From Elusimicrobiota bacterium (GTDB lineage Bacteria > Elusimicrobiota > Elusimicrobia > UBA1565 > UBA9628): a DNA stretch of 64,000 nucleotides. Position 1 is the stretch's first letter. Every line of letters starts with the position of its first letter. The notes under the pieces are model-generated. The model was given only the letters and a program-made list of their open reading frames with translations, did no database searches and had not been told where the DNA came from. The position numbers and the translations under genes were made by a program. Of the stretch, positions 6,148 to 59,453 are shown in pieces. Location of the stretch: contig DAHVNA010000003.1 in the NCBI GenBank assembly GCA_027319565.1, positions 29,042 through 93,041 on the forward strand, read 5' to 3'.

Positions 6148-7353
6148 TTGAGAAAACCCGCTATTCTCTTGGTTGAAGACGATATTTCTCTTAATACGCT
6201 CACCACGCTTGAGCTAAGAAACCGCGGCTACGAAGTGGAAACGGCTAAATCGGGCCAAGAGGGATGCGAAAAAATAAGCCAAAACCCCGACATCGTCATC
6301 ACGGATCTTAAGCTCGGCGACATGGATGGGATGGATGTCCTGAGCCGGGTTAAGAAATATGATCCCAGGATAGAAGTCATCGTCGTCACGGGACACGGTT
6401 CCATTGACAGCGCGGTCAAGGCTATCAAGGCCGGCGCTTTTGATTATCTCACGAAACCCGTCGACTCCGAAGAATTGGAACTGACCATCAAAAAAACCCT
6501 AGAACATCAAAAATTAATCGCCGAAGTGGAGAATCTCCGCTCTGAAATTCGAGACAAATATAGCTTTAGCGGAATCGTCTACTCTAGCCCCAAGATTAAA
6601 AACATACTCGAAATGGTCAACAAAGTCGCCAAAACCGAGGCCACTGTTTTAATTCTAGGCGAATCAGGAACCGGCAAGGAGTTAATCGCCCATGCAATTC
6701 ACGAGCAAAGCCCCCGACGCCACGGCTCTTTTGTAGCCATCAATTGCGGAGCCTTGCCCGAAGGGCTGCTTGAAAGCGAGCTTTTCGGCCACGTCAAGGG
6801 CTCTTTTACGGGAGCCGATAGAAACAAAAGGGGGCTTTTTGAAGAGGCCTGTGAAGGCACCTTGTTTTTAGATGAGATTAGCGAGACAACGCCCGCTCTT
6901 CAAGTCAAACTCCTGCGGGCGCTGCAAGAAGGAGAAATCCGGCGCGTTGGAGACAATCATCCGATCAAGGTTTCCGGCCGACTCATCGCGGCCTCAAACA
7001 AGGATTTGGAACAACTGGTGGAAAGCGGGAAATTTAGAGACGATCTTTATTATCGCCTTAAGGTTTTTCCGATTGAAATTCCGCCTCTCAGAGAGCGCCC
7101 CGAGGATATTCTGCCTCTGGCCGAACACTTCTTAAGAAAAGCGCAAAAGAAGATATCGGGAAGCGCCAAACGCTTTTCTCCGGAAGCGGCCGCAGCTCTC
7201 AAAGCCTATTCTTGGCCCGGGAACGTCCGCGAGCTTGAGCATACCGTTGAGCGAATATTAATTCTCGCCTCCCAAGCCGAGATAAAACTGGAAGATGTTC
7301 CTCCCGAGATTCGCGCCTTACGAAAAAAAGCTTCGCTAAAACAGAAAAATTGA
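6148..7353 (+). CDS. NtrC-family sigma-54-dependent response regulator lacking C-terminal HTH
   Basis: Receiver (VEDD, ITDLKL, KP), GESGTGKE, GSFTGA loop, LFLDEI, WPGNVREL; TTG start at 6148 with GGAG upstream. Confidence 0.93.
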   Translation: MRKPAILLVEDDISLNTLTTLELRNRGYEVETAKSGQEGCEKISQNPDIVITDLKLGDMDGMDVLSRVKKYDPRIEVIVVTGHGSIDSAVKAIKAGAFDYLTKPVDSEELELTIKKTLEHQKLIAEVENLRSEIRDKYSFSGIVYSSPKIKNILEMVNKVAKTEATVLILGESGTGKELIAHAIHEQSPRRHGSFVAINCGALPEGLLESELFGHVKGSFTGADRNKRGLFEEACEGTLFLDEISETTPALQVKLLRALQEGEIRRVGDNHPIKVSGRLIAASNKDLEQLVESGKFRDDLYYRLKVFPIEIPPLRERPEDILPLAEHFLRKAQKKISGSAKRFSPEAAAALKAYSWPGNVRELEHTVERILILASQAEIKLEDVPPEIRALRKKASLKQKN

Positions 7354-44961: not shown

Positions 44962-46290
44962 TCATAGCCCGCCTTTGTTATAAATCTGATCTATCTTTTC
45001 AAGCCCCGCGGCGGCATCGGAATTTTCCGGGTCATATTTCTTGGCCAAGATCCACTCATTTTTCGCCTGTTCGTAATTATGCTGCATATAATACTGAACG
45101 CCCAAGAGATAATGCTGTTTCGAGGCTTTTTTATCCTCCTCTGAAACCGCGGCGGTTTGTAGAGGCGGTGTAGAAGAAGTTTGGGCGGTTTGAGAACTCG
45201 CCGAAACAGAAGCGGTTTGAGCCGCTTTCTCTTTTTCCTTTTTCCGCTCGGCTCTCTTTTTAGCTGCGGCAATAGCCTCTTGTCTTCTCTTGAGCGCGGA
45301 CTTTTCTTCCGCTTTCAACTCTTGATGCCTTTTGACGATCGCGTCTTTGGCTTGGGCAATCAGCTGATCCGCCGACTCCGTGTCGTAACCATAATCTGTA
45401 GCTTGTTTCCACTGGGCAATCGCTTGATTAAAATGTCCCTGACGATAGAGATCTCGTCCGGCAACCACATGCTGATTGGCCATTTCCGAACGAATTTGGC
45501 CCATTAAGCTGCGGACCTTACCATTAGAGGGCTCATAGGACAAAATCTGATCCAAAATCTTGAGCGCCTCGTCGGTCTGGCCTTCCCCGTAAAGAGTCAA
45601 GGCCGCTTCCAGTTTTTTATTCATGTCCCTGTTTTTTTGCTGCATCTCGACTCGCTGAATCGCTTCTTGAAGATGCGGATACCTGGGATTTAAAACAAGG
45701 GCGGAATACCATTGATCCAAGGCTTCTTTATATTGCCTCTTCTGATAGAAAATCCGGCCGCGAACGAAATGCTCATGAGCCAATTTAAAGCGGCACTTTT
45801 TCAGCCAAAACTTGGCCTTGATATTGTAGGGCGACAGCTGAACGACTTCTTTAAACCGGTTTTCCGCCTCGACCAAACGCCCTTCCCGGTAAAATTCCAT
45901 TCCCTCGTCGAACTTATCGACGGATAGCTTATGCTCGGCAAAAAGAGGCCGCGGGGATCCTTTTAAATTAATCGCCGCATCCTGGAGAATCTGCGCGTCT
46001 TGATAATCCGGATCAATAGTCAATATTTGAGCGGTTAATCTCTTAGCCCCGGCGAAATCCCCTTTTTTATATAAATCATATGCGCTCCGGTAAACCTCTT
46101 TGAGCATCGCGCGCGTGATTTGAGACTGTTCTAAATCGACGGTGTCAATGGCTTTTTTCTCCTCATTGGAGCTAACCGGCCCCAAGGTTACTTGGGAAAG
46201 ATTTAGAAATAAAGCGTCCATTTTCTTGTCGCTATCCTGCGCATAAAGCGCGGAAGAAATCAAAAGAAAAAAAGCCGCGACAAAGGCCAT
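44962..46290 (-). CDS. Exported TPR protein (TadD-like position)
   Basis: Signal peptide ending ALYA-QD; multiple TPR repeats and a coiled coil. Confidence 0.8.
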   Translation of the reverse strand: MAFVAAFFLLISSALYAQDSDKKMDALFLNLSQVTLGPVSSNEEKKAIDTVDLEQSQITRAMLKEVYRSAYDLYKKGDFAGAKRLTAQILTIDPDYQDAQILQDAAINLKGSPRPLFAEHKLSVDKFDEGMEFYREGRLVEAENRFKEVVQLSPYNIKAKFWLKKCRFKLAHEHFVRGRIFYQKRQYKEALDQWYSALVLNPRYPHLQEAIQRVEMQQKNRDMNKKLEAALTLYGEGQTDEALKILDQILSYEPSNGKVRSLMGQIRSEMANQHVVAGRDLYRQGHFNQAIAQWKQATDYGYDTESADQLIAQAKDAIVKRHQELKAEEKSALKRRQEAIAAAKKRAERKKEKEKAAQTASVSASSQTAQTSSTPPLQTAAVSEEDKKASKQHYLLGVQYYMQHNYEQAKNEWILAKKYDPENSDAAAGLEKIDQIYNKGGL

Positions 46291-47186
46291 TAGAATCCAA
46301 GGCCTCCTTTGAGAAGCGACTTAATCATCGGTGAAAGCATCATGATAAACACCGTTGGGAAAATGAAAATAAATAGCGGAATCAACATTTTGGTTGAAGC
46401 CTGGGCGGCTAATTTTTCAGCTTTATTGAGACGCCGAAAACGCATATCGGCGGCGTAATTTCGCAAAAGTTCGACCAAGGACGTCCCTAATTCGTCGGAC
46501 TGAATAATCAAGCCTACAAATGAGCGAATTTCTTGAAGCCCGGTCCTCAAGGCCATGCGTTCCAAGGCGTCGCGGCGGGAATAGCCCAAACGAACCTCGG
46601 TCAAGGTCTTATCGATTTCGACCTCAAGCTCGGTTTTAGTCTTGGCGTTTTTGACGATGCGTTCAAAAGCCGACAGGTAATCAAGCCCGGATTCAATGGT
46701 TAAAGCCGCTAAATCGACAAAGGTGGGAAAATTTCTTAAGATGGCCGCTTGCCGAACTTCGACTTGTTTTTTAAAGAGACTGTCCGGCAAGATAAAGCCG
46801 ACCACCAGGCCAAAAATTCCAAACAAAATATTTCCCGTCAAGAGTCCAAACAACGCCCCAAAAGCCGACGCCAAAAGCTCTTTCTGATGGAGAATATCAA
46901 GCGGAGTCGGCTTCTCCGGCCTACCCATCATCATATGCAGATTTTCGATGGCTTTTCCAATCTTTAAAGTATTCAATAGCCATAAATCCAGCCGCTCGAC
47001 AAAAGAGCCCTTGGGGTTTAAAGCCGAAAAAGCGGTCTCAAGGGATTTTTCCGATTTAGCGATTTTAGCGACATCGGTCTCGTCTTGGACTGCCGGGCTA
47101 AAAGCGCGATGAACCAAGGTATAGGTGGCCATCGAGCCTAAAAAGCCCAAAATCAACAAAAGGTAATGCATCATGGTCAAACTCAT
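46290..47186 (-). CDS. tadC: Tad pilus assembly platform protein TadC (T2SSF family)
   Basis: FPTFVDL..IESGL, RLGYSRRDAL, QSDELGTS, AEKLA..KMLIPL..FIFP. Confidence 0.9.
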   Translation of the reverse strand: MSLTMMHYLLLILGFLGSMATYTLVHRAFSPAVQDETDVAKIAKSEKSLETAFSALNPKGSFVERLDLWLLNTLKIGKAIENLHMMMGRPEKPTPLDILHQKELLASAFGALFGLLTGNILFGIFGLVVGFILPDSLFKKQVEVRQAAILRNFPTFVDLAALTIESGLDYLSAFERIVKNAKTKTELEVEIDKTLTEVRLGYSRRDALERMALRTGLQEIRSFVGLIIQSDELGTSLVELLRNYAADMRFRRLNKAEKLAAQASTKMLIPLFIFIFPTVFIMMLSPMIKSLLKGGLGF

Positions 47187-48862
47187 ACCTGGACATCTCC
47201 CAATTTATTGACCACCTTCATACCGATGGCGATCCAGATCGTGCAAAAAAGCAATGTAATTACGCCCAGAGGGCTAAAATAAAAAGCGGACATCTGCTGG
47301 GGCTGAAACAGAAACATCACTAAAAGCATAATCCACGGCATAATGCCAACGACAATGGCCTGAATTCTCTGTTGCGCCGTCATCGCGGCGGTCTTTTCCA
47401 CCAATTTAGTTTCTTCGCGGATATTTTCGACAATGCGGTCAAACAGCTTCGTCAGGTTTCCGCCCGCGGTCCTTTGAATGACAATGGCCTTGATAAAATA
47501 AGACAAAAGTCGGCTCTGCACTCTTTCTTCCATTCCCTCCAAAGCTTTCTCGATGCTGGTTCCCAGCTGATAATTTTTAAGACAAAGCCCAAATTCTTCC
47601 GAGATAGGCGGTTGCAAATCCTTTTGGACCATGCCGAAACATTGCACTAAATCGACTCCCGCTTTAAGGCCATTGGACATCAAAATCAGCGCGTCCATCA
47701 ACTGTTTTTCGCATTTCATCCCTCGGCGAAAACGAATATTCTGTAAAAGCCATCCCGGTAAAATCAGCCCGGCATATGTTCCAAGCCCAAAAAAGATAAT
47801 AAACCCAAAGATATTAAAAGTCAAAAGTCCCACTAAAAACCCCAAGACAATCGGAGCTCCCACTAAATAATTAACTTTAACGGTCAAAAACTGGCGTTGA
47901 TATTCGTAGGCCCACTCTTTAGCCTTGGCTTTATAACGATCCGTCGCTTCTTGGATTTGAGCTTTATTAAGACTGCCGAGAAACCATCCCCCAAAAAGCA
48001 TGACGGCTACTCCCACCAGCGTTAGAAAAGTCGCTAGAGCTGGAGACGCGGGGCCCGGCACATCGGGAGGGGCGTAGCCCGCCGGCGGCTGATTGAGCCT
48101 TTGAAAGGACTGTTTAGCCAACATCGCAATGGCCATGACCCCTTGCCGATATTCCTTCACATTTCCATTGGTTAAACCGGTAATCAAACTTTCCATTTCT
48201 TTGTCGATCAACGAAAAAATCGCCATTTCTTCCCGTCCGCGCCCGGCCAGGGAATTTTCAAGCCGCGCGCGATAGAGGCGGTCCAAGGCCATCTCAAAGC
48301 GAATGCGTTCGGTCTCATAATCGCCGGCGAGCGTCTTGGGATCTTGCAATTGGCCGCCGTCTTTGGGCGATAAGGTTTTGCGGGTCAACTCAAAAACTTC
48401 GTAGAGGACCGCCGGAGGCCCCTGCCAAATCTGCGCCTCATTAAGCGTTCCTTGTTCCGGGTCCTGCCAAACCGGATGAGAAATCATCGCCGGCATAATT
48501 TGATCGACCCAGCCGGGAACGATCAGGGCGGGATCGCGGTCTTTCTTAAAATAATGATAAAAACGCTGGACGTCTGATTCCGCCCCGCTTTGGGGATTAA
48601 AAATATAATTGACCTGGGCCGGATTGAAATAATCGGCGAAAGCGGAAGCGGAAAGAAACGGAGAGAAAAAGAGAGCAACGGAAAGTAACGGAAAGACACG
48701 GAAAGCAAAGGAAGGCAAAGGAAAGTTACGGAAAGAAACGGCAAGTAACGGAAAGAAACGGAAGGTAACGGAAAGACACGGAAAGGAACGGAAAGGAAGA
48801 GACAACAGCGAATACTTGCCGTCTCCTTTTATTTCTTTCCGTTTCTCTCTGTTGCTTTCCAT
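47183..48862 (-). CDS. tadB: TadB with extra N-terminal exported domain; signal peptide is encoded by a repeat array
   Basis: C-terminal QLMDALILMSNGLKAG, PPISEEF, QRTAGGNL, TAQQR; N-terminus ends ASAFA-DY. Confidence 0.88.
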   Translation of the reverse strand: MESNREKRKEIKGDGKYSLLSLPFRSFPCLSVTFRFFPLLAVSFRNFPLPSFAFRVFPLLSVALFFSPFLSASAFADYFNPAQVNYIFNPQSGAESDVQRFYHYFKKDRDPALIVPGWVDQIMPAMISHPVWQDPEQGTLNEAQIWQGPPAVLYEVFELTRKTLSPKDGGQLQDPKTLAGDYETERIRFEMALDRLYRARLENSLAGRGREEMAIFSLIDKEMESLITGLTNGNVKEYRQGVMAIAMLAKQSFQRLNQPPAGYAPPDVPGPASPALATFLTLVGVAVMLFGGWFLGSLNKAQIQEATDRYKAKAKEWAYEYQRQFLTVKVNYLVGAPIVLGFLVGLLTFNIFGFIIFFGLGTYAGLILPGWLLQNIRFRRGMKCEKQLMDALILMSNGLKAGVDLVQCFGMVQKDLQPPISEEFGLCLKNYQLGTSIEKALEGMEERVQSRLLSYFIKAIVIQRTAGGNLTKLFDRIVENIREETKLVEKTAAMTAQQRIQAIVVGIMPWIMLLVMFLFQPQQMSAFYFSPLGVITLLFCTIWIAIGMKVVNKLGDVQV

Positions 48863-48980
48863 TTCTTTCCGTTGCTCTCCGCTTATTTCCGTTTCTTTCC
48901 GTGTCTTTCCGTTACTTTCCGTTGCTCTCTGTTTCTTTCCGTTGCTTTCATTTTCTTTCTGTCACTTTCCGTTACTTTCA
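48651..48980. repeat. Inverted array of 10-bp tandem repeats (GGAAAGWAAC x~15, then GTTWCTTTCC x~16)
   Basis: Read directly: left arm 48651-48800, right arm 48811-48980; the arms are reverse-complement consensus. Confidence 0.97.
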
Positions 48981-51275
48981 TTTCGGTTTCGCCGCCGGGG
49001 CGGGACTTGCATTTCCCATCCCCAACGAGAGCGCCTGTTTTTCCGGCGAGGGAAGGCCTTGTCTTTTGGCCTTGGATTCCTCGCTTTCAAAAATCGACTT
49101 TGGAACATTGAGGCCTTTGAGATGAAACTCTTCGTGAAAGGTAGGGACATAATCGCAGGCGGAAAAATAGCCGACGCTTTGGCCTTTCTCGTTAACTGCC
49201 ACCTGGTGATATTTGTAAATATCGCGCATGGATATCTTAAGCCCCTCTTTTCCGGTCACTTCGGTCACATAGGTCACTCGCCTTTTTCCATCGGCAAACC
49301 GGGTCAATTGAACGATGACGTGAACCGCGCTTGAAATCATGTCCACCAAAACCGACATCGGAAGTTCCGTCCCCGCCATCAAACACATCGCCGACAAGCG
49401 CGAAATCGCGTCATTGGGAGAGTTCGCATGCAAAGTCGCCAGCGATCCCTCATGGCCGGTATTCATCGCTTGAAGCATGTCCAAGGCTTCTCCACCGCGG
49501 CACTCGCCAACCACGATGCGGTCCGGTCTCATGCGCAGACAGTTTTTAATCAGGTCGCGAATGGCAATTTCTCCTTTTCCCTCGATATTGGGAGGGCGCG
49601 ATTCCAAGCGCACCCAATGCTCTTGCATCAAATTAAGTTCCGCGGTGTCTTCCACGGTGATGATGCGCTCGTCTTCCGGAATAAAATTAGACAACATATT
49701 TAAAAAAGTTGTTTTTCCGGTTCCGGTTCCACCGGAGATGATGATATTCTTGCGCAAGATAACGCAGTTTTTAATGAAGTCTATGATATCGGGCGTGCAA
49801 GCCCCAAAGCCAATCAACTGCTTATAAGTAAAGGGTTTTGCCGAGAAACGCCGAATGGTAAGCGTCGGACCGGAAACCGCCAGCGGCGCGATAATGGCGT
49901 TGACCCGGGAACCGTCTTTAAGGCGCGCATCGACGAGTGGCACCGACTCATCAATTCTACGCCCCACCGGAGCGACAATGCGCTTGATCACTTGAACCAC
50001 CTGATCATCGTCTCTAAACCTCACCGGAAGAAGCACTAATTTGCCCTGGCGCTCGATATAAATTCGGTCAAAAGCGTTGACCATGATTTCGTTGATGCTG
50101 GGATCCCGCAAGAGAGACTGAAGCGGCCCTAGACCCAAGATTTCATCGATGAGTTCGGTAGTGAAAAGTTCGCGCTGTTGGCGTGAAAGTTTTAGATCCG
50201 GCTCTCGTTGAAGCAGGCTTTCGATGATCGCTGAAACTCTCGCCCGATTTTCTTCATTCTGACCGGTTTCATCTGCAATGCGAATGCGCTCGGTTTCCAT
50301 CGCGGTCACAACCAACTTGTGCATCTTCCCTTTGAGCTCATCCCAAAAAGGCGGAAGATCTTCAGCGGGCAAACGAACAGGATCGGGCTTTTTCTTGGCG
50401 GGCGCCTCAGGAGAATCCGCGCCAAGAGCGGATTTCCACAAGAGTTCCGAGCCTTGCTGGAATTCGCTTGTCTCAAGATTGGACTCCCACGATTTCGCCG
50501 CCGGAATCGCGCTGCCAAGACGAGCGAGCAGAACTTTAAGGGTTTTTGCCCAGTCATTTTGCATATTTTCGGCGACTAAAATTTTTTGCGTATTGGCGCA
50601 CTCGGGAATCAACTCCTCCCAAGGCATATAGGCCAGCACTTTCTTTTGAAGAGTCTGGAAAAATTTATCGATTTCTTGGGGAGCTAAAGAACCGGGGAGA
50701 TTGGCTTGGTTGATCACCACTTCAAAGCGTTCTAAAGGAAAATGGAGGGCTTTGAGCTCGGAAAAGATGTTGTAGGTCGCCTCGCAATGGCTTCTCTGCG
50801 GCAGACAAACCCAATAGACGAGATCGGCGAAATCCAAAGAGAAAATCTGCATTGGAAAATAAGGGTCGACATCGATAAAAATATCATAAGTCTCAGAAAG
50901 GGCTCCCAAAACCTTGGCTACCACCTGGGGCTGAAGCATCGTGATCTCTTTTCTGTTATTACCCAAGGGCAAGACTCCGACCCCCCATTGGCTCATCGGG
51001 ATTCGCCCGCGCAAGAGCTTTCCTAATCCTGAAGGGTTAGGCGCGACCAAGGAGGAAAGCTGCGCTAACGTCGGAGAATTAAGGCGCAATTGAAAAGAAA
51101 GATCATTGCGTCCTAAAGGATCCATCGAGACGATCAAAACGTTTCGGTTCTGGGTTCCGGCCCACACCAAGGCCAGGTTAAGACATATCGCGCTTTTCCC
51201 GACCCCTTCCTTGGGCCCGGTAAAGACCGCAACCCGTCCCGGCAAACTAACCGTCTTCGTTTCTGGGCTTGCCAT
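48978..51275 (-). CDS. cpaF: Fused CpaE/TadZ (ParA/MinD-like) and CpaF/TadA pilus ATPase
   Basis: N-terminal GPKEGVGKS deviant Walker A; C-terminal GLGPL, VDARLKDGSRVN, GGTGTGKTT, LRMRPDRIVVGE, MNTGHEG. Confidence 0.93.
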   Translation of the reverse strand: MASPETKTVSLPGRVAVFTGPKEGVGKSAICLNLALVWAGTQNRNVLIVSMDPLGRNDLSFQLRLNSPTLAQLSSLVAPNPSGLGKLLRGRIPMSQWGVGVLPLGNNRKEITMLQPQVVAKVLGALSETYDIFIDVDPYFPMQIFSLDFADLVYWVCLPQRSHCEATYNIFSELKALHFPLERFEVVINQANLPGSLAPQEIDKFFQTLQKKVLAYMPWEELIPECANTQKILVAENMQNDWAKTLKVLLARLGSAIPAAKSWESNLETSEFQQGSELLWKSALGADSPEAPAKKKPDPVRLPAEDLPPFWDELKGKMHKLVVTAMETERIRIADETGQNEENRARVSAIIESLLQREPDLKLSRQQRELFTTELIDEILGLGPLQSLLRDPSINEIMVNAFDRIYIERQGKLVLLPVRFRDDDQVVQVIKRIVAPVGRRIDESVPLVDARLKDGSRVNAIIAPLAVSGPTLTIRRFSAKPFTYKQLIGFGACTPDIIDFIKNCVILRKNIIISGGTGTGKTTFLNMLSNFIPEDERIITVEDTAELNLMQEHWVRLESRPPNIEGKGEIAIRDLIKNCLRMRPDRIVVGECRGGEALDMLQAMNTGHEGSLATLHANSPNDAISRLSAMCLMAGTELPMSVLVDMISSAVHVIVQLTRFADGKRRVTYVTEVTGKEGLKISMRDIYKYHQVAVNEKGQSVGYFSACDYVPTFHEEFHLKGLNVPKSIFESEESKAKRQGLPSPEKQALSLGMGNASPAPAAKPK

Positions 51276-51276
51276 T

Positions 51277-52020
51277 TTATTTCACGATATCTAAAGTGAT
51301 AAACAAAAACAAGGTCGACTCTTGCTCTTGAACGCTGGTCTGAGTAAACAAAAGCCCCAGTAGCGGGATACGGCCCAAATACGGAACTCGCGTTGTGGTG
51401 ACGTTTTTAGAACTGGTTTTAAGCCCTCCAATCACCAAGGTCTCCCCGCTTCTAACCTCGACCGAAGTTTGTATCTGACGAGTCGTAATAGACGGCACCA
51501 CGCTTCCACCCACTTGAACGGTTTGTGAATAATTGGGATTGGAAACTTCTAGCTGAAATTGAGCCATAATATGGTCTTTTTTATTCGGGTCCACGCTCAC
51601 CGCCGCGTTTAAAATCGTGGCGATCTTTTTAAAACTGACGCCCACTCCTTGGACATTGACCACTGGATAGGGTTGCTCTCCTCCAACGACAAAATTGGCC
51701 TGTTGGCCTGATTGAACGATGACCTTGGGGTTTGACAAGGTCTGGGCTTTGCCGTCTGTCTCCATCATCTGAAGAGAAGCCTGCAAAGCCGTCTTTCTCG
51801 CGAAATCGCCAATACGGATAAGCCCGGGAATTGAATTTTCGGCAAAGGTAATTCCGGTTTGAAACGGCCCCCAGTTAAAACCTTCTGCTTTAGTCACGGA
51901 ACCTGAAATCTCCACGATATCCGCCGATATGGAAATGAGCGGAGTCTCATCTGCGGCAAGCGCGCGTGACTGCGCCGCCATCAGAATAACCAATACTCCC
52001 CACCACTGTCGCATCATCAT
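51277..52020 (-). CDS. Minimal secretin (RcpA/CpaC-like)
   Basis: Signal peptide; GKAQTLSNP, ANFVVGGE, TRQIQT.V....GETLVIGGL, VPYLGRIPLLGLLF. Confidence 0.88.
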   Translation of the reverse strand: MMMRQWWGVLVILMAAQSRALAADETPLISISADIVEISGSVTKAEGFNWGPFQTGITFAENSIPGLIRIGDFARKTALQASLQMMETDGKAQTLSNPKVIVQSGQQANFVVGGEQPYPVVNVQGVGVSFKKIATILNAAVSVDPNKKDHIMAQFQLEVSNPNYSQTVQVGGSVVPSITTRQIQTSVEVRSGETLVIGGLKTSSKNVTTTRVPYLGRIPLLGLLFTQTSVQEQESTLFLFITLDIVK

Positions 52021-52069
52021 GTTGTCGTACTGTTGAGCCGGGGCAAAGCCCCCAATTTACTTCGTTTGC

Positions 52070-52825
52070 TTATTTAAAGAGCTTTCTAAAACTCGCCATC
52101 TCCATCGGATGCATCTCCAAATCTCCCAAGCCTCTTAATATGACGGTGACTTCGCCTTCTTTCATCGAAAGGGCTAAATACTGGGCCTCATCCGGATTTA
52201 AAGCGACGGAAACCGCGGCCTTATCCGAAAGAGAAGAAAGCTGACTCTGTTGGGAGTTCAAGGCCTTGGCCTGCTTGGCGTTAAGCCCTTGCCCCATATT
52301 GTCTCCAACGGCCAAAACCATTAAATTCTGAAGAATGGTCGCGGTCACTTTTTCTTTATGGCCATCGGCCATTTTCGCGTTAAAAGTCACGAGCACATCC
52401 ACATGGTCTCCCGGCTTAATGAGGTCTCTCATCGCCGGGTTAATCGGCAAAATCGCCCCGCGATACCCCGGGGGAATCTTAACCGAAAGCCCAGCCTTGG
52501 CCGACATTGAAATGACCGCCGATTGCGTGATCTGGTCTCCCTGCGGGATACGAATGCGCGTCACCAAGTTTGAAATCATGCTGATATCCGAAGGAGAGCG
52601 AATTTCAAAGGCGTCTTGCTGCATAAATTTTCTGGGAATGGAGACAGGCTCAACCATATTCTCTTTGAGGACCGTCCGCTCGGGAATGTCGAGTCTTGCC
52701 ACCAAGACATGCGTCGTTTCATATGCGCTCATCAAGGAACGCTCCTTGGCCGTCAAAATCATGAGATAAATCGTCGCTGCGGCAATCGCCAGGATCGCGG
52801 GAATCAGAATATTTTTTTTGTCCAT
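52070..52825 (-). CDS. cpaB: Flp pilus assembly protein CpaB/RcpC
   Basis: N-terminal TM, SAF domain VLVARLDIP, IPPGYR, IKPGDHVDVL, ILQNLMVLAVG. Confidence 0.92.
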   Translation of the reverse strand: MDKKNILIPAILAIAAATIYLMILTAKERSLMSAYETTHVLVARLDIPERTVLKENMVEPVSIPRKFMQQDAFEIRSPSDISMISNLVTRIRIPQGDQITQSAVISMSAKAGLSVKIPPGYRGAILPINPAMRDLIKPGDHVDVLVTFNAKMADGHKEKVTATILQNLMVLAVGDNMGQGLNAKQAKALNSQQSQLSSLSDKAAVSVALNPDEAQYLALSMKEGEVTVILRGLGDLEMHPMEMASFRKLFK

Positions 52826-52837
52826 AATCGTTGAGCC

Positions 52838-53425
52838 TCAGTTGTTTGAATACGGCAATGGAATCTCGACCGGCATATCGACGACGGCCTGAATCTGCCG
52901 GACATTTTGCCCGTGCACATTAGATAAAATTAAGCTGCTCAAAGGAAAAACCAGCGGCACGTTGTAGGTCGCGGTCACTTCCAAATCCTCATTTTGAACC
53001 CCGGACTGCGGATCTTGAAGAGTTGGAATCATGCTTGAGGTTAAGGTCGCGCCCTTGATATGCTGGCTGAGAAGCGCCTGCATCGTTCCCGTTGGATTAC
53101 TCACACTCCCTGTTTTTCCAGCCGCCGTCATCGCCCCCACGCGAGCGCATTCAAACGTCGCATGGTTAAGCACGATGACCCAGAAGGCGATATAGCCCAT
53201 TTCCATGATGGTAAAAACAATCGTCAAAAAAACCGGCAAAATGAGAAGGGTTTCAACCATGACCTGCCCGCCTTTTGAGCGAAGGGAAGGCGCGCACGAT
53301 TGCCTATTGGAAAGACGTTGCAATCGGGCCTGACCCAGTTCTGAAAATATCGGGCGAGGGGGTCGAACCCTCGGGGTTTTACAAAACCCAGTGTTCCCGA
53401 TACCTCTAGGCGAAGCTGTCTTCAT
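52838..53425 (-). CDS. tadE: TadE-like pseudopilin with long leader
   Basis: G|QVMVE class III cleavage site, hydrophobic helix, ECARVG; start codon uncertain. Confidence 0.88.
   Translation of the reverse strand: MKTASPRGIGNTGFCKTPRVRPPRPIFSELGQARLQRLSNRQSCAPSLRSKGGQVMVETLLILPVFLTIVFTIMEMGYIAFWVIVLNHATFECARVGAMTAAGKTGSVSNPTGTMQALLSQHIKGATLTSSMIPTLQDPQSGVQNEDLEVTATYNVPLVFPLSSLILSNVHGQNVRQIQAVVDMPVEIPLPYSNN
53348..53402 (-). other. Perfectly paired three-way junction with TTCGA loop (tRNA-like or REP-like) in the tadE leader region
   Basis: TATCGGG/CCCGATA outer stem, GGGTTTT/AAAACCC arm, CGAGGG-TTCGACC-CCCTCG arm. Confidence 0.6.
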
Positions 53426-53448
53426 AATGCCGCCTGTTTTCTCCTAGG

Positions 53449-53634
53449 TTATTGCCCCATATTCGATGCAGCGCCCGAAATCATGCCTTGAATTTGCTGA
53501 AAAAGGCTCGGCATATACTTTTTAAGAGCAAAGCCGGCCGCCAAAACGACGCCGACGACGACCGTCAACATCAATAAATACTCAACCGTGTTTTGACCAC
53601 GCTGAGACTTAAGCCACTGATTCATTTTTTTCAT
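53449..53634 (-). CDS. flp: Flp family type IVc pilin
   Basis: RG|QNTVEY motif plus hydrophobic helix; AGGAGAG RBS. Confidence 0.9.
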   Translation of the reverse strand: MKKMNQWLKSQRGQNTVEYLLMLTVVVGVVLAAGFALKKYMPSLFQQIQGMISGAASNMGQ

Positions 53635-53659
53635 TTCTCTCTCCTGTGTTTTTTGGCCC

Positions 53660-53824
53660 CTAGATCCACGTCGATAGAATCATCATCGCCGCGTTGGTAA
53701 AGAGGCTTTTAAGTTGCTGCTGAATAAATCCATAAAACCCGGAAAAGGCCGCGACTAAAACCACCGTGGTCAAAAGATATTCCACCGTGGTTTGCCCTCG
53801 GCTGAGCCGGTATTTTTTTCTCAT
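53660..53824 (-). CDS. flp: Second Flp-like pilin (54 aa), absent from ORF track
   Basis: Manual translation MRKKYRLSRG|QTTVEYLLTTVVLVAAFSGFYGFIQQQLKSLFTNAAMMILSTWI. Confidence 0.88.
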   Translation of the reverse strand: MRKKYRLSRGQTTVEYLLTTVVLVAAFSGFYGFIQQQLKSLFTNAAMMILSTWI

Positions 53825-53905: not shown

Positions 53906-55051
53906 CTAAAATTTAGTGGTCAGGGTAAACTGATTGACGGTCCCCAATGCCCCCATCGGAACAAAGGCATAATCGACCCCTAAGCCGTAGCCAAAAGCGG
54001 CGGAGGTGTAAAAACCAAGGCCCAAACTAATGCCGCTGACCGCGTTAAGGTTAATGGCCGGAGAACTCGGAGTGGTAATCGCGGTATAATTATCGGCTTC
54101 AAAATACCCGGCGCGGAAAGCCAATTGACCCACCTCTAAATATTCTTCAGGAACGGTAAATTCCGCGCCGACTCCGGGCCGCGGAATATCACCGGCGAAT
54201 TGATGGACCTCGAAGCTTAGCTTAAAGAAATCATTAGGGATAATCGCAAAACCCGCGCGCATTGTAGAACCAACGACATATTGGCTGGCGCCAAAATTTT
54301 GGTAGGAAGCTCCAAGACTCAGCCAATCATTGGGCTTAACGATAATTCCGGCATCTCCGACCAAGCTGTCTGAGATATCTCCGTTATAGTCTTGATGCAC
54401 TAGGCGAAGGGTTCCGCCCAAAAAAATGCGCTCATACCAGAAAGATCTGGCGACAGAAACAGCCCCATAGCCATTGTTAACCTGGACGTTAAAATTAGAA
54501 AGCGGCACCCCGTTTTGATCGCGAACGTCAAAATTATTATCGCTCATGTAAGAGCCGCTAAATCCAAAAACCGTTTGCCCCACCGGCTGGGCATATGCCA
54601 TATAGACGGGAGCTTGAACTCCTTGAATATATTTGAGGTAGGAATAAGAAAATTCTCGTTCATCGGTCATCGCGAGCCCCGCCGGATTCCAGGTAATGGC
54701 GTCAACGCCCGAGGCCAAGGCGACAAAGGATTGTCCCAAGGCCATCGCCCGAGCCGAGCCCTGAGAAATATCTAAAAAGGCCGCACCCCCGGTTCCCGCC
54801 CCGGCGCTAATGGCCCAGGCCGAAGGGACGGAGAGGAAAAGAGAGAAACAGAAAGCAACGGAAAGTAACGGAAAGTAACGGAAAGTAACGGAAGGTAACG
54901 GAAAGAAACGGAAAGTAGAAGAAAGCAAAGAACGGAACCAGACAGAAACGGACAGAAACGGAGAGAAACAGACAGTAGAGGAAAACGGCAAAAACCTTCC
55001 GTTACTTGCCGTCACTTTCCGTAACTCTCTGTTACCTTCCGTTTCTTTCAT
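53906..55051 (-). CDS. PorV/PorQ-family outer membrane beta-barrel; signal peptide is encoded by a repeat array
   Basis: AAFLDI..SARAMALG..F.A.....AITWNPAGLA signature, DYAFVPMGALG, terminal Phe. Confidence 0.85.
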   Translation of the reverse strand: MKETEGNRELRKVTASNGRFLPFSSTVCFSPFLSVSVWFRSLLSSTFRFFPLPSVTFRYFPLLSVAFCFSLFLSVPSAWAISAGAGTGGAAFLDISQGSARAMALGQSFVALASGVDAITWNPAGLAMTDEREFSYSYLKYIQGVQAPVYMAYAQPVGQTVFGFSGSYMSDNNFDVRDQNGVPLSNFNVQVNNGYGAVSVARSFWYERIFLGGTLRLVHQDYNGDISDSLVGDAGIIVKPNDWLSLGASYQNFGASQYVVGSTMRAGFAIIPNDFFKLSFEVHQFAGDIPRPGVGAEFTVPEEYLEVGQLAFRAGYFEADNYTAITTPSSPAINLNAVSGISLGLGFYTSAAFGYGLGVDYAFVPMGALGTVNQFTLTTKF

Positions 55052-55110
55052 TTTCTTTCTGCTACTTTCCGTTTCTTTCCGTTACCTTCCGTGTCTTTCC
55101 GTTGCTTATC
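54831..55110. repeat. Second inverted array of the same 10-bp repeat
   Basis: Left arm 54831-54980 (includes three exact GAAAGTAACG units), right arm 54991-55110 (GTTWCTTTCC). Confidence 0.97.
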
Positions 55111-55112
55111 AC

Positions 55113-58100
55113 TCACGGGATCAGCACCTTTTTAACGGTTTGGGCAAAATTTTTATTTCCGTAAGTTTCCTGAGCTTGAAAGACCACATAGTAAATTCCT
55201 TTCGCCACCGGACGCCCGGCTTCATTGTCTTTGTTCCATACATATGTCAGAGGAGACGGGCTGTCATATGCGGGAGGGACCTGTCCGAAATCATGTTGAT
55301 AGACCAATTCTCCCGCCATCGTATATATCCTCATGAAGACATCGCCCTGGAAAGGCACCCAGATTGAAAAAGTCACCGTCGGCCCGTACGCAGGATTGGG
55401 ATAGGCGTAGGTATTTTGATCAAAATCTCCCTGGGGGTTTAAGGATCCGTTTCTACTGACCGGCAAATTCTCAATATATTGATCAATGGAGAGTTCGCAG
55501 AGGTCTCCCTGAGTCACTTGTCCCGTAATCGTGTCAATGGCGGTGTTGTCGGTAGATCCTATGACCGTAAAGGTGTAATCCCCATCCGGGACCTTGGTGA
55601 AACTGAGGTCGGTTCCATCCCAATCAGTCTCGACTGGCTGGCGCGGCGGCTGGTTTGAAACCAGCACCTTGACCAACGAGCCGATTCCCCCAGTCGTCGT
55701 ATAAGCAGGCGGGCTCGGGCTTCCAATCTGGGGACAATAAGACTGGTTGATATTGGAATTGGGAAATTGCGTATTGGGACGATAAACCAAGACCGCGACC
55801 TTCATTGGTTCCGAGACTTGATAAAAGATGCGCGCCGTAGGATTTTGGAGATTAATGGGGCTGACCGCCAAATCATAAATCTGAATAGGGAAATAGCTAA
55901 TCGTCGCCGCAGAAGTCGACAAAGAGAGGAGGGAGTTTTCTGAAGCCACGTCTTGCGCCGTCATGACGATGGTATAGAAATTAGGAGGCGGGAAATTGCC
56001 ATAATTATCCCGTCCATCCCATACGGCGTTGACGGGAACCCCCCCGTCATATGATTGCCCGAAAACCAAATTGCGAATCACCTGCGGCGGGGTATTGTCA
56101 TTGACCACATTGATTGTCACCGAAGACGGGCGCGTCAATTCAAAATTGATGGTAAATGGATCAAGTTCGACTGTTTGACTTGAGTAATAAGTTCTGGCGA
56201 TAGTCGGCTCGACGTTAAAAATAGGAACGCCGATGATTCCCCTGGCAACTGGAATAATTCCCACGATGCGGTCGGTTGAATAAGCAGAGCCGCCCTCGAC
56301 CGGAACCGTCGCCTGAGCAACCAAGGTAAAGGGATAATCTCCATCCGAAACCATGATTCCGTTGGAGTCAATTCCTGGCCAATTGTCCGAGACCATCAGA
56401 CGCCCCGCGCGCATTCCGTAAATTTGATAGAAAGGCACTTCGGGAACTCCGTTGGAGGCAACGACATCATTACAAGGGCTATTTTGAACCACTTGTCCGC
56501 ATGGCGGCCAAGAAGTATTGACGTTTTTAATAATGGTCCCCGGTTCATAGATATTAATTCCCGTCCACATGGCGTTAGATTCCTCATAATTAATAAATGC
56601 CGTGGCGGTCGTTCCCGAAAGAAGCGGAGACACCGTCAAATTGGTCGTCCGGAACATATCAACCGGGAAAATAGCGGTGGTAGTCGAGACAAAAGCGGGG
56701 AAAGCCGGGTCCCAAGCTTCGAGTTGAACCAGATAATCCCCGGATGAGACGTAGAGACCATTGTCATCGGTTCCATCCCAAATTTCGGTATTGGGAATGT
56801 TGGCGGATCTGGACTCACCCAAAATTAGATGCCTCACAACCGCAGTAGAATTGGCTTCGTTAAAAATATCAACCTTAACCGTGGCGTCCCGGGTCAGGGT
56901 ATAGGTAAATTCAAAGGGGTTGATTCCCGCGACCGGAGGGCTTGAACCGACGACAGTTGAAGTCGGCGTAATTTGGCTAATTCCCACAAGCCCCCGAACC
57001 ACTGGGATAAAGCCGGTATTGGCCACCATGGTCCAAATGCGCGAATCATTAGGGTTTCCATTAAACGGATAGCCATTTTGAGAGGCCAGTTCCGCATAGA
57101 GAACATACACATAATCTCCATCCGGCAAGAGATTTCCCGAGCTGTCTCTCCCGTCCCACCAATCGATGACCGGCGTGCGGGACGGTTGGGATTGGACGAT
57201 ATGCTGAATGGGAGAAACATTAGAAACAATGGGCCCCGATGTTGGACAAGGCCCCATATACGGATAAAAATTCTTGGGTGGCGCAATCGCCTGATTGACT
57301 CCCGCTCCCGTGTCTAACCCTGGATTGTTAACGCTCGACAGCGGCACAATCTCCTGCCCTCCTATCGACACAGGAGAACAAAATTGAACGCCCGGCGGGT
57401 AAATATCCAAAAATGTCGTCGCGGGCTCGGTCAAGGTGTATCCAATCACCGCCAAAGAGGTCGATCCGCCTTCAAGAGGAGTCACCGCAATATCGGTGAT
57501 TTGAAGCGGATTAATGGACATGGGATAGGTATAGGGAGCGGAAATATCAAGCCCATACTGATCCGCGTTTTCGGCCTGGAGATAGACCAAATAGTTCCCA
57601 GGCGGGGCCAAATCTCCATTATCATAACGCCCGTCCCAGGCATCTCCATTAGTCAGGGTTCCGCCCGGGTAACCCTCGCCCACCCGCGGAAGCCCGTTGA
57701 CCAGATGCCGAACGATGGTGACAGTAGATTGATTGATGACTCCACTAGGGACCGTGACGGTCGTAATTTCAATAAACATGGTCGCGTCTTCCGAGAGGCG
57801 ATAGGTCAAATTATAAGGCTCGGCCGCTACGGGAGTTAATTTCCCGACCAAGGTCGGAGACGAGCGAACGACATGGACATCGACGACATTAACCGTAATC
57901 GGTTGCTGTAAAACATTGGCCCCGGCGGTAAAAGAACCGGCGGATTGATAGCTAAAACTACCGCCAGTGATAGAAGCCGTCCCACCCCCGCTGGCAACGC
58001 TAAAATTAATGGTCCCTGAAGTAACGGCTCCTGCCGCTCCAGAACCATTGGCAAAGGTCCCTTGGCTTAAGCTCAGGCTCCCCGTTCCGTTGAGCAAAAG

Positions 58101-59453
58101 TCCGTTTCCTGATCCCACGCAGTTACTGCTATTACAAGAAAGCACGCCTCCAATCTCCGCCCCTTGAATGCTGGTTGACTGCGCCGAAAAAGAAACGCCG
58201 GTCACCCCTGTCGATAGGATGCTCCCATTATAAGTCCCACTTTGAATATAAGTGATCCCATTAGCGCTGCTGGAGTTGAGATTCAAACTGACAGCATCGC
58301 CGGGGGACAAATAACCGCTGCTTGAATTGGTGGAAACAAGGGTCAGAGATCCACTTGTGATTGTGTCAATCGCTGAATATGAGGGAATCGTTTGAGTGAG
58401 TGGATAATTCACAAAGTCCGCGTCATTGGTCGAGCCCGAGGGATAGGCCTGCACATTGGAAAGTTGAATATTTCCGGTCAAGGATTGAGTCTCATTGGTC
58501 GCGACTGTCGCCCGAAAGCCAAATTGACCGTTGGTCTTGCCAAAAATCCCCTGAATATTAATGGAACCGTCCCAAGGAACGCAATAAGGCCCGAGATCCG
58601 GGCATCCCGGTTCTCCACTGATTCCAGTCGTACAACCCTGAAATCCATCCGGAGGGATATATCCGACATTATTGATAAAGAAAGTTCTTAAAGGCGGGGT
58701 TGAAGTGGGGTCTAAGGGATTAGAACCATTGGCGTATTGAAAAACTTCATACTCAAGCGAATCAATCGCCATGGGCGCCAGGGGAACGCCGCTACCGGGT
58801 AAAAGCGCCTCGCTTAAATCATAACCCACCGAGGCGCAGAGATAGATCTCGCTATTACAAATGTTTGAGGCCTCATCCGACGGCCAAGGAATTAAAGGAA
58901 CCGTAGACGGAGCTGATTGGGTTTGTGTTGTCGTTACCCCGTCCGTAACCAGGGCTCCCAGATTACTTAACTGTTGAGTGGCCAGGGCGGAACATTGGGC
59001 CGCGCCAAACCCGCCAGTGCCCGACTGTCCCTCTTGATCAAATTCGATATGCGGGTCATTGGATATATTTCCAAACCCCGCATAATAATCAGGATTAATC
59101 GTGGGAGCCCCCGAGAAATTTTGTCCCCCGCCGGTCCCGCAAGCCGGAGAACTGAGGATTCCAGTACACAAATCCGTTGGCGAAAGCGGAATCGGGGGGC
59201 AGATAAAGCGCGGAACGCCTCCCACGGTGTCTTGAACGATGCAGTTTGGGTTAACCTGCTGGGTAAAAATAGAATCGATAAAAATCTGCTGGGCGCTTGA
59301 AGCTTTGGGGAACAGAGAAAAAAGCGCAAGTGGAAATAGGCCGGACCATAAAACCTTTCCCATAGATGTTCCGGGACGCTCTCGCTTCGCGAGTGAATGC
59401 AGGGACAGTTTCCATTTCCACTTGCCGCGCGGATGCGATATTCGGATGCTCAT
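55113..59453 (-). CDS. Large secreted protein with tandem FlgD-Ig-like modules and a T9SS-type C-terminal sorting-like domain
   Basis: About 8 W(D)GxDxxG...GxY modules; C-terminal YAYPNP..IYTMAGELV..WN..GIY..KKVLI; likely start 59363 (MGKVLW..ASSA-QQ). Confidence 0.82.
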   Translation of the reverse strand: MSIRISHPRGKWKWKLSLHSLAKRERPGTSMGKVLWSGLFPLALFSLFPKASSAQQIFIDSIFTQQVNPNCIVQDTVGGVPRFICPPIPLSPTDLCTGILSSPACGTGGGQNFSGAPTINPDYYAGFGNISNDPHIEFDQEGQSGTGGFGAAQCSALATQQLSNLGALVTDGVTTTQTQSAPSTVPLIPWPSDEASNICNSEIYLCASVGYDLSEALLPGSGVPLAPMAIDSLEYEVFQYANGSNPLDPTSTPPLRTFFINNVGYIPPDGFQGCTTGISGEPGCPDLGPYCVPWDGSINIQGIFGKTNGQFGFRATVATNETQSLTGNIQLSNVQAYPSGSTNDADFVNYPLTQTIPSYSAIDTITSGSLTLVSTNSSSGYLSPGDAVSLNLNSSSANGITYIQSGTYNGSILSTGVTGVSFSAQSTSIQGAEIGGVLSCNSSNCVGSGNGLLLNGTGSLSLSQGTFANGSGAAGAVTSGTINFSVASGGGTASITGGSFSYQSAGSFTAGANVLQQPITVNVVDVHVVRSSPTLVGKLTPVAAEPYNLTYRLSEDATMFIEITTVTVPSGVINQSTVTIVRHLVNGLPRVGEGYPGGTLTNGDAWDGRYDNGDLAPPGNYLVYLQAENADQYGLDISAPYTYPMSINPLQITDIAVTPLEGGSTSLAVIGYTLTEPATTFLDIYPPGVQFCSPVSIGGQEIVPLSSVNNPGLDTGAGVNQAIAPPKNFYPYMGPCPTSGPIVSNVSPIQHIVQSQPSRTPVIDWWDGRDSSGNLLPDGDYVYVLYAELASQNGYPFNGNPNDSRIWTMVANTGFIPVVRGLVGISQITPTSTVVGSSPPVAGINPFEFTYTLTRDATVKVDIFNEANSTAVVRHLILGESRSANIPNTEIWDGTDDNGLYVSSGDYLVQLEAWDPAFPAFVSTTTAIFPVDMFRTTNLTVSPLLSGTTATAFINYEESNAMWTGINIYEPGTIIKNVNTSWPPCGQVVQNSPCNDVVASNGVPEVPFYQIYGMRAGRLMVSDNWPGIDSNGIMVSDGDYPFTLVAQATVPVEGGSAYSTDRIVGIIPVARGIIGVPIFNVEPTIARTYYSSQTVELDPFTINFELTRPSSVTINVVNDNTPPQVIRNLVFGQSYDGGVPVNAVWDGRDNYGNFPPPNFYTIVMTAQDVASENSLLSLSTSAATISYFPIQIYDLAVSPINLQNPTARIFYQVSEPMKVAVLVYRPNTQFPNSNINQSYCPQIGSPSPPAYTTTGGIGSLVKVLVSNQPPRQPVETDWDGTDLSFTKVPDGDYTFTVIGSTDNTAIDTITGQVTQGDLCELSIDQYIENLPVSRNGSLNPQGDFDQNTYAYPNPAYGPTVTFSIWVPFQGDVFMRIYTMAGELVYQHDFGQVPPAYDSPSPLTYVWNKDNEAGRPVAKGIYYVVFQAQETYGNKNFAQTVKKVLIP

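Follow-up and report, generated by a model that had tools for sequence, protein, structure and literature searches.

A palindromic array of 10-bp repeats encodes the predicted cleaved leader of a PorV-like protein in an Elusimicrobiota bacterium

The window considered here, namely, a whole stretch of 64,000 nucleotides (nt) from contig DAHVNA010000003.1 of an Elusimicrobiota genome (G000; 2.03 Mb, 111 contigs, ~92% complete), contains at positions 54831-55110 a 280-base palindrome built of 10-bp units that read CGGAAAGNAA on one arm and the complement of this sequence on the other. Given that the array lies at the junction between a gene encoding a large exported protein and a gene encoding a PorV/PorQ-like outer-membrane protein, the question arises as to what such a repeat is doing at the start of a gene. 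An earlier interpretation of the same DNA, hereafter the sequence-only reading, had held that the array is an independently diverged second copy of another array in the window (copy 1, 48645-48979), that it encodes the signal peptide of the PorV-like protein and that it belongs to a family of elements that target gene junctions and hide in cleaved leaders. When these claims were followed up by genome-wide scans and by comparison with related species, the following reading emerged as the probable one: the array would be a translated, leader-resident member of a lineage-restricted CGGAAAGNAA family, lying within a predicted cleaved PorV/PorQ-like leader. The features of the locus are listed below, with a slash marking cleavage sites here and throughout and with open reading frame abbreviated as ORF and amino acids as aa.

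55113 to 59453, minus strand: upstream gene, encoding a 1446-aa exported protein with FlgD Ig-like domains (Pfam FlgD_ig, E = 5.9e-31) and ending in the stop codon TGA at 55115-55113.
55048 to 55116, minus strand: ancestral start position, GTG at 55116-55114, overlapping the upstream stop (CCGTGA); now only a 22-codon short ORF.
54997 to 55110, minus strand: arm that is purine-rich on the gene strand, ~11 units; contains ATG 55051 and specifies the charged n-region, MKETEGNRELRKVTASNGR.
54985 to 54996, no strand: loop separating the arms, delimited by the fold and by arm comparison.
54831 to 54984, minus strand: arm that is pyrimidine-rich on the gene strand, ~15 units; encodes FLPFSS...FRYFPLLSVAFCFSLFLS, the h-region.
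54812 to 54830, minus strand: c-region VPSAWA, outside the repeat; signal peptidase I is predicted to cut between A (54814-54812) and I (54811-54809).
53906 to 54811, minus strand: mature PorV/PorQ-like outer-membrane protein, 301 aa; orthologues are 96-98% identical.

On the plus strand, (CGGAAAGNAA)n extends up to 54984 and its complement begins at 54997, such that 10-bp tandem units fill both 54831-54984 (plus strand purine-rich) and 54997-55110 (plus strand pyrimidine-rich). Tandem Repeats Finder accordingly reported period-10 repeats at 54847-54917 (7.1 copies, 90% matches) and at 54997-55107 (11.1 copies). When 255 units were pooled, the resulting logo read C-G-G-A-A-A-G-N-A-A, with position 8 being free. 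A unit of 10 nt, i.e., of a length not divisible by three, is thus repeated in tandem within a 5' coding region. The two arms are inverted copies of each other, being 73-82% complementary in every 10-nt register, so that their pairing derives from the unit consensus and not from unit-by-unit matching. Moreover, since the two strands of a palindrome read alike, the identical orientation of the two window copies, as noted in the sequence-only reading, is trivial. On either side, a pyrimidine arm comes ahead of any gene leaving the palindrome, and a purine arm comes after any gene running into it.

The existence of the array was well borne out. The repeat units, their placement, ATG 55051, the end of the array at SAWA/IS and the peptide strings quoted in the sequence-only reading all proved exact. 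A three-unit pattern, allowing up to 3 mismatches, gave 95 matches (42 + 53) in G000, as compared to 0 for a reversed control. In addition, Logan contigs of runs X1, X2 and X4 reproduce 54831-55110 exactly in three pieces (54788-54917, 54889-55091 and 55063-55161) with 0 differences and flank-like depth, the middle piece spanning both the loop and the ATG unit, and run X5, from 2011, covers 54900-55370. In the contigs of four runs, including those from 2011 and 2020, a single form was seen in terms of unit number and no indel was listed, although contigs hide minor variants. The assembly of the array is sound, with mis-assembly being ruled out by the matching Logan contigs. In Rfam, nothing but sub-threshold hits to hairpin precursors of plant miRNAs was obtained (37 bits or less, with at least 85 being needed), and a blastn search of a plasmid collection returned no match.

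The relation between the two window copies was also as had been described. Their unit order differs, with the best 50-nt window matching at 46/50 positions and the longest exact run being 22 nt. At the same time, the 16-mer TTTCATTTTCTTTCTG is shared by both (55046-55061 and 48946-48961). It occurs 3 times in the 2.03-Mb genome, the third occurrence being in the array on contig C30, and in each case gives an ATG on the gene strand. A common origin of the two copies going beyond the unit was rejected, given exact runs of only 22 nt.

The predicted leader can be followed along the gene strand. The array begins 2-3 nt past the stop codon (55115-55113) of the 1446-aa gene and stops just ahead of VPSAWA/ISAGAG, with the PorV/PorQ-like barrel extending from ISAGAG on. 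The 22-codon short ORF that starts at the old GTG ends at TGA 55050-55048, overlapping ATG 55051-55049 (ATGA). This ATG opens a 381-aa ORF, of which the first 80 residues correspond to the array and the c-region. The downstream protein scored 84.3 bits against the NCBIfam family PorV_fam (NF033709; cut-off 90), in a match that begins at mature residue 9; more generally, PorV and PorQ profiles start matching at mature residues 9-11. Pfam gave only a weak Toluene_X match for this protein, and two array-bearing paralogues pass Pfam PorV (29.7 and 43 bits, cut-off 27).

Consideration of the translated array revealed the elements of a signal peptide in the expected order. MKETEGNRELRKVTASNGR provides a positively charged n-region, and YFPLLSVAFCFSLFLSVPSAWA provides an h-region of 22 uncharged residues after the last Arg, followed by A-W-A/I, a site with small residues at -3 and -1 that is also used by relatives. 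Both signal peptidases I and II are encoded in G000. Across 11 leaders read in the gene frame, the part encoded by the purine arm is 48% Lys/Arg/Glu/Asp and 87% polar (Lys plus Arg, 83 of 249 residues), and the part encoded by the pyrimidine arm is 8% charged, nearly all Arg, and 77% Phe/Leu/Ser/Pro/Val. In the array at hand, the pyrimidine arm yields Phe, Leu, Ser, Pro and Val with an Arg at about every tenth residue. Because the purine arm reads as charged and the pyrimidine arm as hydrophobic, a palindrome that presents its purine arm first spells the order of a signal peptide. As such, the array encodes the predicted cleaved leader of the PorV-like protein.

Copy 1 is of the same build:

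48645 to 48979, minus strand: copy 1, with the gene-strand purine arm at 48979-48832 and the pyrimidine arm at 48795-48645.

It lies between the stop codon of a CpaF-like ATPase (48980-48978, overlapped by an ATG at 48981-48979) and SAFA/DYF of a T2SSF (TadB/C-like) protein. Here, the 76-aa leader starts at ATG 48862, behind a short ORF of 32 codons.

Five genomes of the same genus (G001-G005), each containing the PorV-like gene, were compared at four junctions, i.e., those of the two window copies, of a PorV paralogue on C22 and of a lipoprotein on C78. The giant protein on C30, queried as a fifth case, yielded relatives in no more than two genomes, at only 61-64%, and was left out. Across the four junctions, the mature proteins are 82-98% identical, and both the start codon and the cleavage site are fixed. 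At the PorV junction, all five orthologues present an AWA/ or AWS/ site (SAWA/, RAWA/ or PAWS/) after leaders of 23-43 aa, with the old start being in frame with the mature protein (ATG in G001, G003, G004 and G005; GTG in G002). G004 has a plain leader of 23 aa, MNKKGGQSLFFLVFMAIPGSAWA/L, with an ATG that overlaps the upstream stop (CCATGA). The leaders of G001, G003 and G005 are of 34-36 aa, with the same start and with one or two small hairpins (GGGGACAGTCCCC, AAAAAGGGGACAGTCCCCTTTT), that of G002 is of 43 aa, with a GTG overlapping the stop and with a short decamer palindrome, and that of G000 is of 80 aa, with the 280-bp array. Since the cleavage site aligns in all species, the array falls wholly within the leader. 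The claim that the array encodes the signal peptide of the PorV-like protein was thus upheld at the level of prediction, with the same cleavage site found behind the shorter leaders of five sister species. Similar gradations in leader length (in aa) were seen at the other three junctions:

CpaF/TadB: G004, 22; G001, 34; G005, 35; G003, 45; G002, 40; G000, 76.
PorV paralogue on C22: G004, 20; G001, 17; G005, 33; G003, 18; G002, 40; G000, 89.
Lipoprotein on C78: G004, 20; G001, 20; G005, 47; G003, 47; G002, 53; G000, 77.

In the case of C22, the old ATG of G000 remains in frame through the entire 242-bp palindrome. At C78, the start of every leader is a GTG that stands seven bases past a TATATT box. 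It was also observed that at the PorV junction of G003, G005, G004 and G001 (L011, L013, L014 and L015) there are small terminator-like hairpins comprising an A-run, GGGGACNGTCCCC and a T-run, which are written into n-region codons (KKRGQSPF) of the orthologous leaders; six such sites are found in G000 as well.

The distribution of arrays in G000 was addressed by scanning for at least 4 units. This returned 39 arm rows, from which 22 arrays of ~60 to ~450 bp were kept after inspection. Five rows (C14:13731, C21:5099, C21:30781, C89:9810 and C89:44611) were dropped as being A-rich and non-periodic by eye, and C66:1962, corresponding to four units in an RHS/YD-like ORF, is uncertain and stands outside the count. 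In agreement with the enrichment at the 5' ends of exported-protein genes that the sequence-only reading had proposed to look for, 15 of the 22 arrays lie in export leaders (binomial p = 1.2e-3 against a background of 34%, this being the share of signal- or membrane-like N-termini among 1701 crude genes under a deliberately generous rule). The leaders concerned end in AxA sites, lipoboxes (FSAC, FASC or AISC) or prepilin sites (G/FTLIEL), and the coding leader copies all precede the cleavage site. The arrays assigned to leaders are:

54831-55110 and 48645-48979 in the window: PorV-like gene and T2SSF gene, respectively.
C14:29768, C22 and C33:21030: further PorV-like genes.
C19, C23:26528 and C78: lipoproteins with the lipobox at the array edge (FSAC; FASC, with SBP_bac_5; and AISC, respectively).
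C23:129655: type IV pilin (...PFG/FTLIELL, N_methyl).
C67: TadE-like protein.
C14:39141: TPR/SH3 protein (AFA/QQ).
C89:47536: HtrA-like protease.
C30: giant protein.
C42: ankyrin protein.
C89:4650: TPR protein.

The remaining arrays are found elsewhere:

C15: upstream of a promoter-like site.
C33:12230: between divergent genes.
C33:22930 and C33:25495: co-directional spacers.
C89:50568 and C33:4920: between convergent 3' ends.
C96: an 813-bp contig.

Where genes enter an array, purine-arm units were seen to supply their last residues (...TESNRK, ...KRTESHGK and ...TGESNGE) and the stop codon (L026:6463-6497, L029:5182-5205 and C33:4890-4946). A second, unrelated repeat family (GTCATTCCGGCGACCGAGC...GCCGGAATC), with 14 blastn matches on seven contigs, is nested on C33 within three decamer-palindrome loops (L026:2090-2300 and 6526-6790; L025:2160-2290).

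When the three-unit pattern was sought in other genomes, the CGGAAAGNAA family proved to be restricted to this genus and two other genera of its family. Three of the five same-genus genomes contain matches (G002, 15; G003, 16; G005, 6), as do G014 and G021, representing the two other genera, and 0 of 16 genomes from two other families of the order gave a match. G001 and G004 contain no strict three-unit match, although the CpaF/TadB leader of G001 has a few unit-like stretches. In the loci fetched from G002, G003, G005, G014 and G021, arrays likewise stand ahead of AxA or lipobox sites.

The possibility that the arrays are kept translatable was considered in two ways. In the first, a script scored the old start as in frame and open for 18 of the 23 junction/genome cases, a figure that rose to 19 of 23 once the C78 case of G001 was corrected, the script having chosen an ATG three bases ahead of the real, in-frame GTG; G002 at C22, where the start is inside the array, was left unscored. 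Counting distinct leader lengths, 16 were in frame and 4 were out (p = 2.5e-5 against an expected 1/3). The four out-of-frame cases comprise both window copies, G002 CpaF/TadB and G002 C78. Here, a short ORF of 10-32 codons runs from the old start, with the main ATG being found at an exact ATGA overlap in three instances and 20 nt downstream in copy 1. In the second, the order of the 10-mers in the purine arms of 11 leader arrays was shuffled. An in-frame open ATG was observed in 9 of 11 arrays as compared to 2.9 expected (p ~3e-5), and counting either ATG or GTG gave 11 of 11 as compared to 3.65 expected. The purine arm is thus kept readable, although the commonest unit (GTAAC) holds a stop codon in one frame. 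A single transition (AAACGG to AAATGG) separates units bearing an ATG from the consensus.

In 13 gene-facing arms, the stretch free of charged residues reaches at its longest a median of 20 aa, as compared to 13 aa in 39 control frames, i.e., frames of arms facing no gene start (p = 0.02). When, however, the comparison was made to the best of three control frames per arm, no difference was seen (p = 0.76). The loss of the periodic Arg near the junction, from which the sequence-only reading had argued for selection on the repeat-derived peptide, therefore stands as a description and is weak as evidence. One of the two arguments for selection in the sequence-only reading is thus a weak one; the shuffle and in-frame tests show the arrays to be kept translatable.

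Taken together, these findings point to the following course of events. The array would have grown between the old start codon, overlapping the upstream stop, and the signal peptidase site SAWA/IS. The purine arm would have come to provide an n-region rich in Lys, Arg, Glu, Gly and Asn and of net positive charge, and the last 22 uncharged residues together with AWA would act as the working signal peptide, such that the whole 80-aa leader would be removed and the mature protein left untouched. Arrays would grow by slippage of 10-nt units and by copying between loci, and would persist in leaders as tolerated rather than required sequences, presumably because a purine-first palindrome spells a charged and then a hydrophobic stretch and because the leader is discarded. 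In the PorV copy, the change of frame relative to the old GTG may be bypassed by the ATG-bearing unit, via the 22-codon short ORF ending in ATGA. The long mRNA hairpin would be a by-product, probably damping or coupling translation.

If this is so, then some 15 envelope proteins of a small genome would have leaders of three- to fourfold normal length, written by hairpin repeats, with nearly identical sister species giving these proteins ordinary leaders. Such genes would be expected to be mis-started or missed by gene callers and signal-peptide predictors. The leaders of 17-89 aa on mature proteins of 82-98% identity would offer a natural series for testing the limits of Sec, lipoprotein and prepilin leaders, and would show where repeat DNA can expand cost-free in compact genomes, given that a purine/pyrimidine palindrome translates, under the genetic code, into a charged and then a hydrophobic stretch. 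In this uncultured phylum, the arrays would likewise be testable candidates for a repeat-driven means of controlling pili, PorV-like channels and lipoproteins.

Several observations nonetheless weigh against a translated leader that is tolerated where it stands. At 80 aa from ATG 55051, the leader is far longer than the usual ~18-30 aa, with other array leaders in G000 being of 76-89 aa. Neither window copy has its old start in the frame of the mature protein, such that expression relies on the internal ATG, and this codon is preceded by only a weak purine-rich sequence and lies inside a hairpin of -134 to -175 kcal/mol. The two window genes could, therefore, be poorly expressed or switched off. 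The statistics for in-frame leader lengths are overstated, given that the species are related. The loss of the periodic Arg, equalled by the best of three control frames, was rejected as proof of selection. Moreover, 7 of the 22 arrays are outside leaders, which are thus not the sole habitat of the family. Finally, the hairpins of the sister species at the PorV junction leave room for a selected fold at that site.

This last point bears on the alternative that survives best, albeit as an unlikely one, in which the fold itself is the function. Here, the array would be a selected intercistronic RNA hairpin of operons, serving as an mRNA stabiliser, attenuator, processing site or translational coupling device, with translation of the downstream envelope gene being tied to ribosomes finishing the upstream gene and with the overlap of the two forcing the hairpin into leader codons. 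Gene-strand RNA of 54831-55110 is predicted to fold at -140.1 kcal/mol as compared to -86.8 +/- 4.9 kcal/mol for shuffled sequences (z = -10.8), folds at all four array-bearing junctions are very stable (z from -10 to -17), and the arrays begin right at the overlapping stop and start codons. Relatives at the PorV junction also fold better than chance in the same place, where sisters carry unrelated small hairpins (z = -4.8 in G003, -5.2 in G005, -3.3 in G002, -6.8 in G001 and -1.6 in G004), and some arrays outside leaders are found where two genes converge at their 3' ends, a position typical of terminators. Against this, array-free G001 and G004 show no fold beyond chance at the other three junctions (z from +1.3 to -1.7), arm lengths correlate only weakly, giving no support to their being kept equal (r = 0.39, p = 0.23), and the equal pairing in every register noted above means that no specific pairing is kept. 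Likewise, a consensus scan of 54600-55300 found 0 intrinsic terminators (a G+C-rich stem followed by a T run) and nothing resembling a promoter, and two of the five same-genus genomes, G001 and G004, have no strict match to the repeat. A conserved fold at the PorV junction is plausible and the mRNA hairpin may modulate expression, yet such folding is not a general rule.

Two further ideas relating to the RNA were rejected. Leader-coding regions are not inherently self-complementary in a manner that would seed arrays, since the first 90 nt of 220 signal-like genes without units (of 576) and of 220 other genes (of 1096) gave mean z values of -0.24 and -0.35 (p = 0.84). Titration of CsrA by the many GGA motifs was likewise dismissed, as no CsrA gene is found in the 92% complete G000.

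A more far-reaching proposal, and a doubtful one, is that decamer palindromes are a self-spreading 'portable leader', with a complete export signal in one palindrome and start codons one mutation away, and at the same time a switch for envelope-gene expression. Gain or loss of a unit would then decide between a coupled start and a short ORF with an ATGA restart, with the ribosome opening a hairpin of more than 100 kcal/mol.

Switching would also be central to phase variation, in which gain or loss of a 10-nt unit would shift the frame by one and turn envelope proteins on or off or alter their level, with ATG units and short ORFs acting as stop/start switches, by analogy with the opa CTCTT repeats or the GCAGA leader of Streptococcus gallolyticus pil1. 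Several features would suit such a scheme, namely, a unit length that is not a multiple of three, the run of seven near-identical units at 54847-54917, the surface or envelope nature of the affected genes, and the four of 23 cases in which a short ORF and an internal ATG replace the old start. The three exact ATGA overlaps among these are, however, not significant, as ATG followed by A holds TGA by construction. Most length variants are in frame, contrary to what free on/off switching would produce, degenerate units lower slippage, and the 2011 and 2020 contigs agree exactly over the array, bearing in mind what contigs hide. Phase variation is thus judged to be improbable. Least probable of all is that no long leader is made, with a TTG or GTG start in the pyrimidine arm giving a signal peptide of 25-40 aa and leaving the purine arm untranslated, or with the window genes silenced by the array, for although in-frame TTG codons occur in several pyrimidine arms (e.g., 33 codons before the outer edge in the PorV copy) and neither window copy keeps the old start in frame, pyrimidine arms contain no purine-rich ribosome-binding sequence, TTG and GTG are missing from several arrays (both C14 and both C23 copies), in-frame ATG or GTG codons in purine arms are far commoner than unit shuffles allow, the old start reads through the entire array at C22, C78 and C23:129655, and the mature proteins, at 96-98% conservation, are not those of decaying pseudogenes.

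That leaders differ by degrees in length, with start and cleavage sites staying fixed, suggests slippage of units together with occasional copying or gene conversion between leaders, and such gradation is better accommodated by local growth plus copying than by insertion of a discrete element. G003 and G005, the closest relatives, carry unrelated hairpins in place of the array at the PorV junction, such that the G000 array replaced them or vice versa, implying more than local growth. The palindromes on C30 and C96 have the loop and a 66-nt exact run in common and, as judged from this identity, represent the one clear recent whole-copy event. Other array pairs share exact runs of at most 32 nt, the longest being the ATG-unit block that C30 shares with copy 1.

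The idea of a family that hides in cleaved leaders and targets gene junctions was borne out only in its first part, by the excess of arrays in leaders. As to targeting, no transposase was found beside arrays in the ORF lists of the copies examined, no nuclease partner came to light, no target duplication was seen by eye at array borders, no systematic test having been made, and seven arrays lie elsewhere. A RAYT/Y1 transposase as the driver was rejected, since a search for Y1_Tnp (PF01797) found this domain to be absent from the 92% complete G000 and from G004 and present in G001, which had no strict match to the array pattern. These findings favour a lineage-specific repeat family that is translated and tolerated in cleaved leaders, rather than a demonstrated targeting mobile element. 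The array at G002:C26:6772-6898 was noted to have a Y1 transposase gene (PF01797, 59 bits; L052, G002:C26:3245-6571) ~1.7 kb away.

The sequence-only reading had also suggested looking for arrays that enclose a cargo gene or adjoin a nuclease or transposase. One cargo-like case and no autonomous copy were found. C96 (L051:1-813), with identical 77-bp ends, contains an antitoxin-like ORF, a RelE/YafQ-like toxin ORF (TIGR02385, 25.5 bits, below the cut-off) and a promoter-like site. The toxin-antitoxin pair is flanked on both sides by a decamer palindrome ~93% identical to that of C30, loop included. C96 could represent assembly scrap, a small circle or a cassette enclosed by two arrays.

The arrays resemble several known repeat systems in part. 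REP, BIME and REPIN sequences are abundant, lineage-specific extragenic palindromes, with REPs being short and linked to RAYT (Y1) transposases. The arrays described here similarly form hairpins at gene junctions, some between convergent genes. They differ from REPs in being long 10-mer arrays that are mostly intragenic and in that no Y1 transposase was found in G000. Rickettsia palindromic elements (RPEs) are multi-copy palindromes found in frame within protein-encoding genes and translated with the host protein, and are described in a review of prokaryotic MITEs as discrete units of ~150 bp that encode a conserved peptide in mature parts of unrelated genes (PMC10969869). The multi-copy palindrome of G000, with 15 of its 22 arrays in leaders, is likewise kept in frame in coding DNA. 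Unlike RPEs, as judged by their description, it forms variable 10-bp arrays of no fixed length or order in leaders, spacers and gene ends.

In the Neisseria opa genes, CTCTT coding repeats in the leader-peptide region form a direct repeat only and mediate proven high-frequency on/off switching (PMC3960869). As in opa, a short pyrimidine-rich unit that is not a multiple of three encodes hydrophobic residues in the 5' end of an outer-membrane protein leader. In contrast to the 5-nt opa unit, which has no inverted arm, the unit here is of 10 nt, is found in two inverted arms and gives leaders of 76-89 aa. The pil1 locus of Streptococcus gallolyticus is reported to have GCAGA repeats that determine the length of a separate upstream leader-peptide ORF, which enters a stem-loop terminator preceding a pilus operon (PMC3894217). 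Both window copies similarly have a short ORF (22 and 32 codons) that ends inside a hairpin. Unlike in pil1, the hairpin here itself codes for a predicted signal peptide and no terminator features were found. PARCELs are tandem coding repeats with dyad symmetry found in membrane-targeted proteins and moved within genomes, encoding a 25-residue amphipathic domain that is retained in the mature surface protein (PMC2996958). The repeat considered here differs from PARCELs in encoding a leader predicted to be discarded and in a dyad that spans two entire arms. None of these systems combines a two-armed 10-mer array with a signal peptide. Nor was any such array described in the literature covered on palindromic or tandem repeats in signal peptides and on Elusimicrobia, coverage that leaves out most subscription journals and supplements.

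A GTG ~7 nt past a TATATT or TATATA box is the apparent start of three exported-protein genes (C78/L028, C89:47536/L029 and C15/L019), a proximity that suggests the presence of leaderless mRNAs in this lineage. In addition, a complete tad/Flp pilus locus is found at 46290-53824 of the window. Apart from the CpaF-like ATPase and two T2SSF genes, the locus holds TadE-like, CpaB-like and secretin-like genes and two small Flp-type pilins (53449-53634 and 53660-53824). The T2SSF protein encoded behind copy 1 bears an extra N-terminal domain of ~300 aa, predicted to be exported, that precedes the membrane part.

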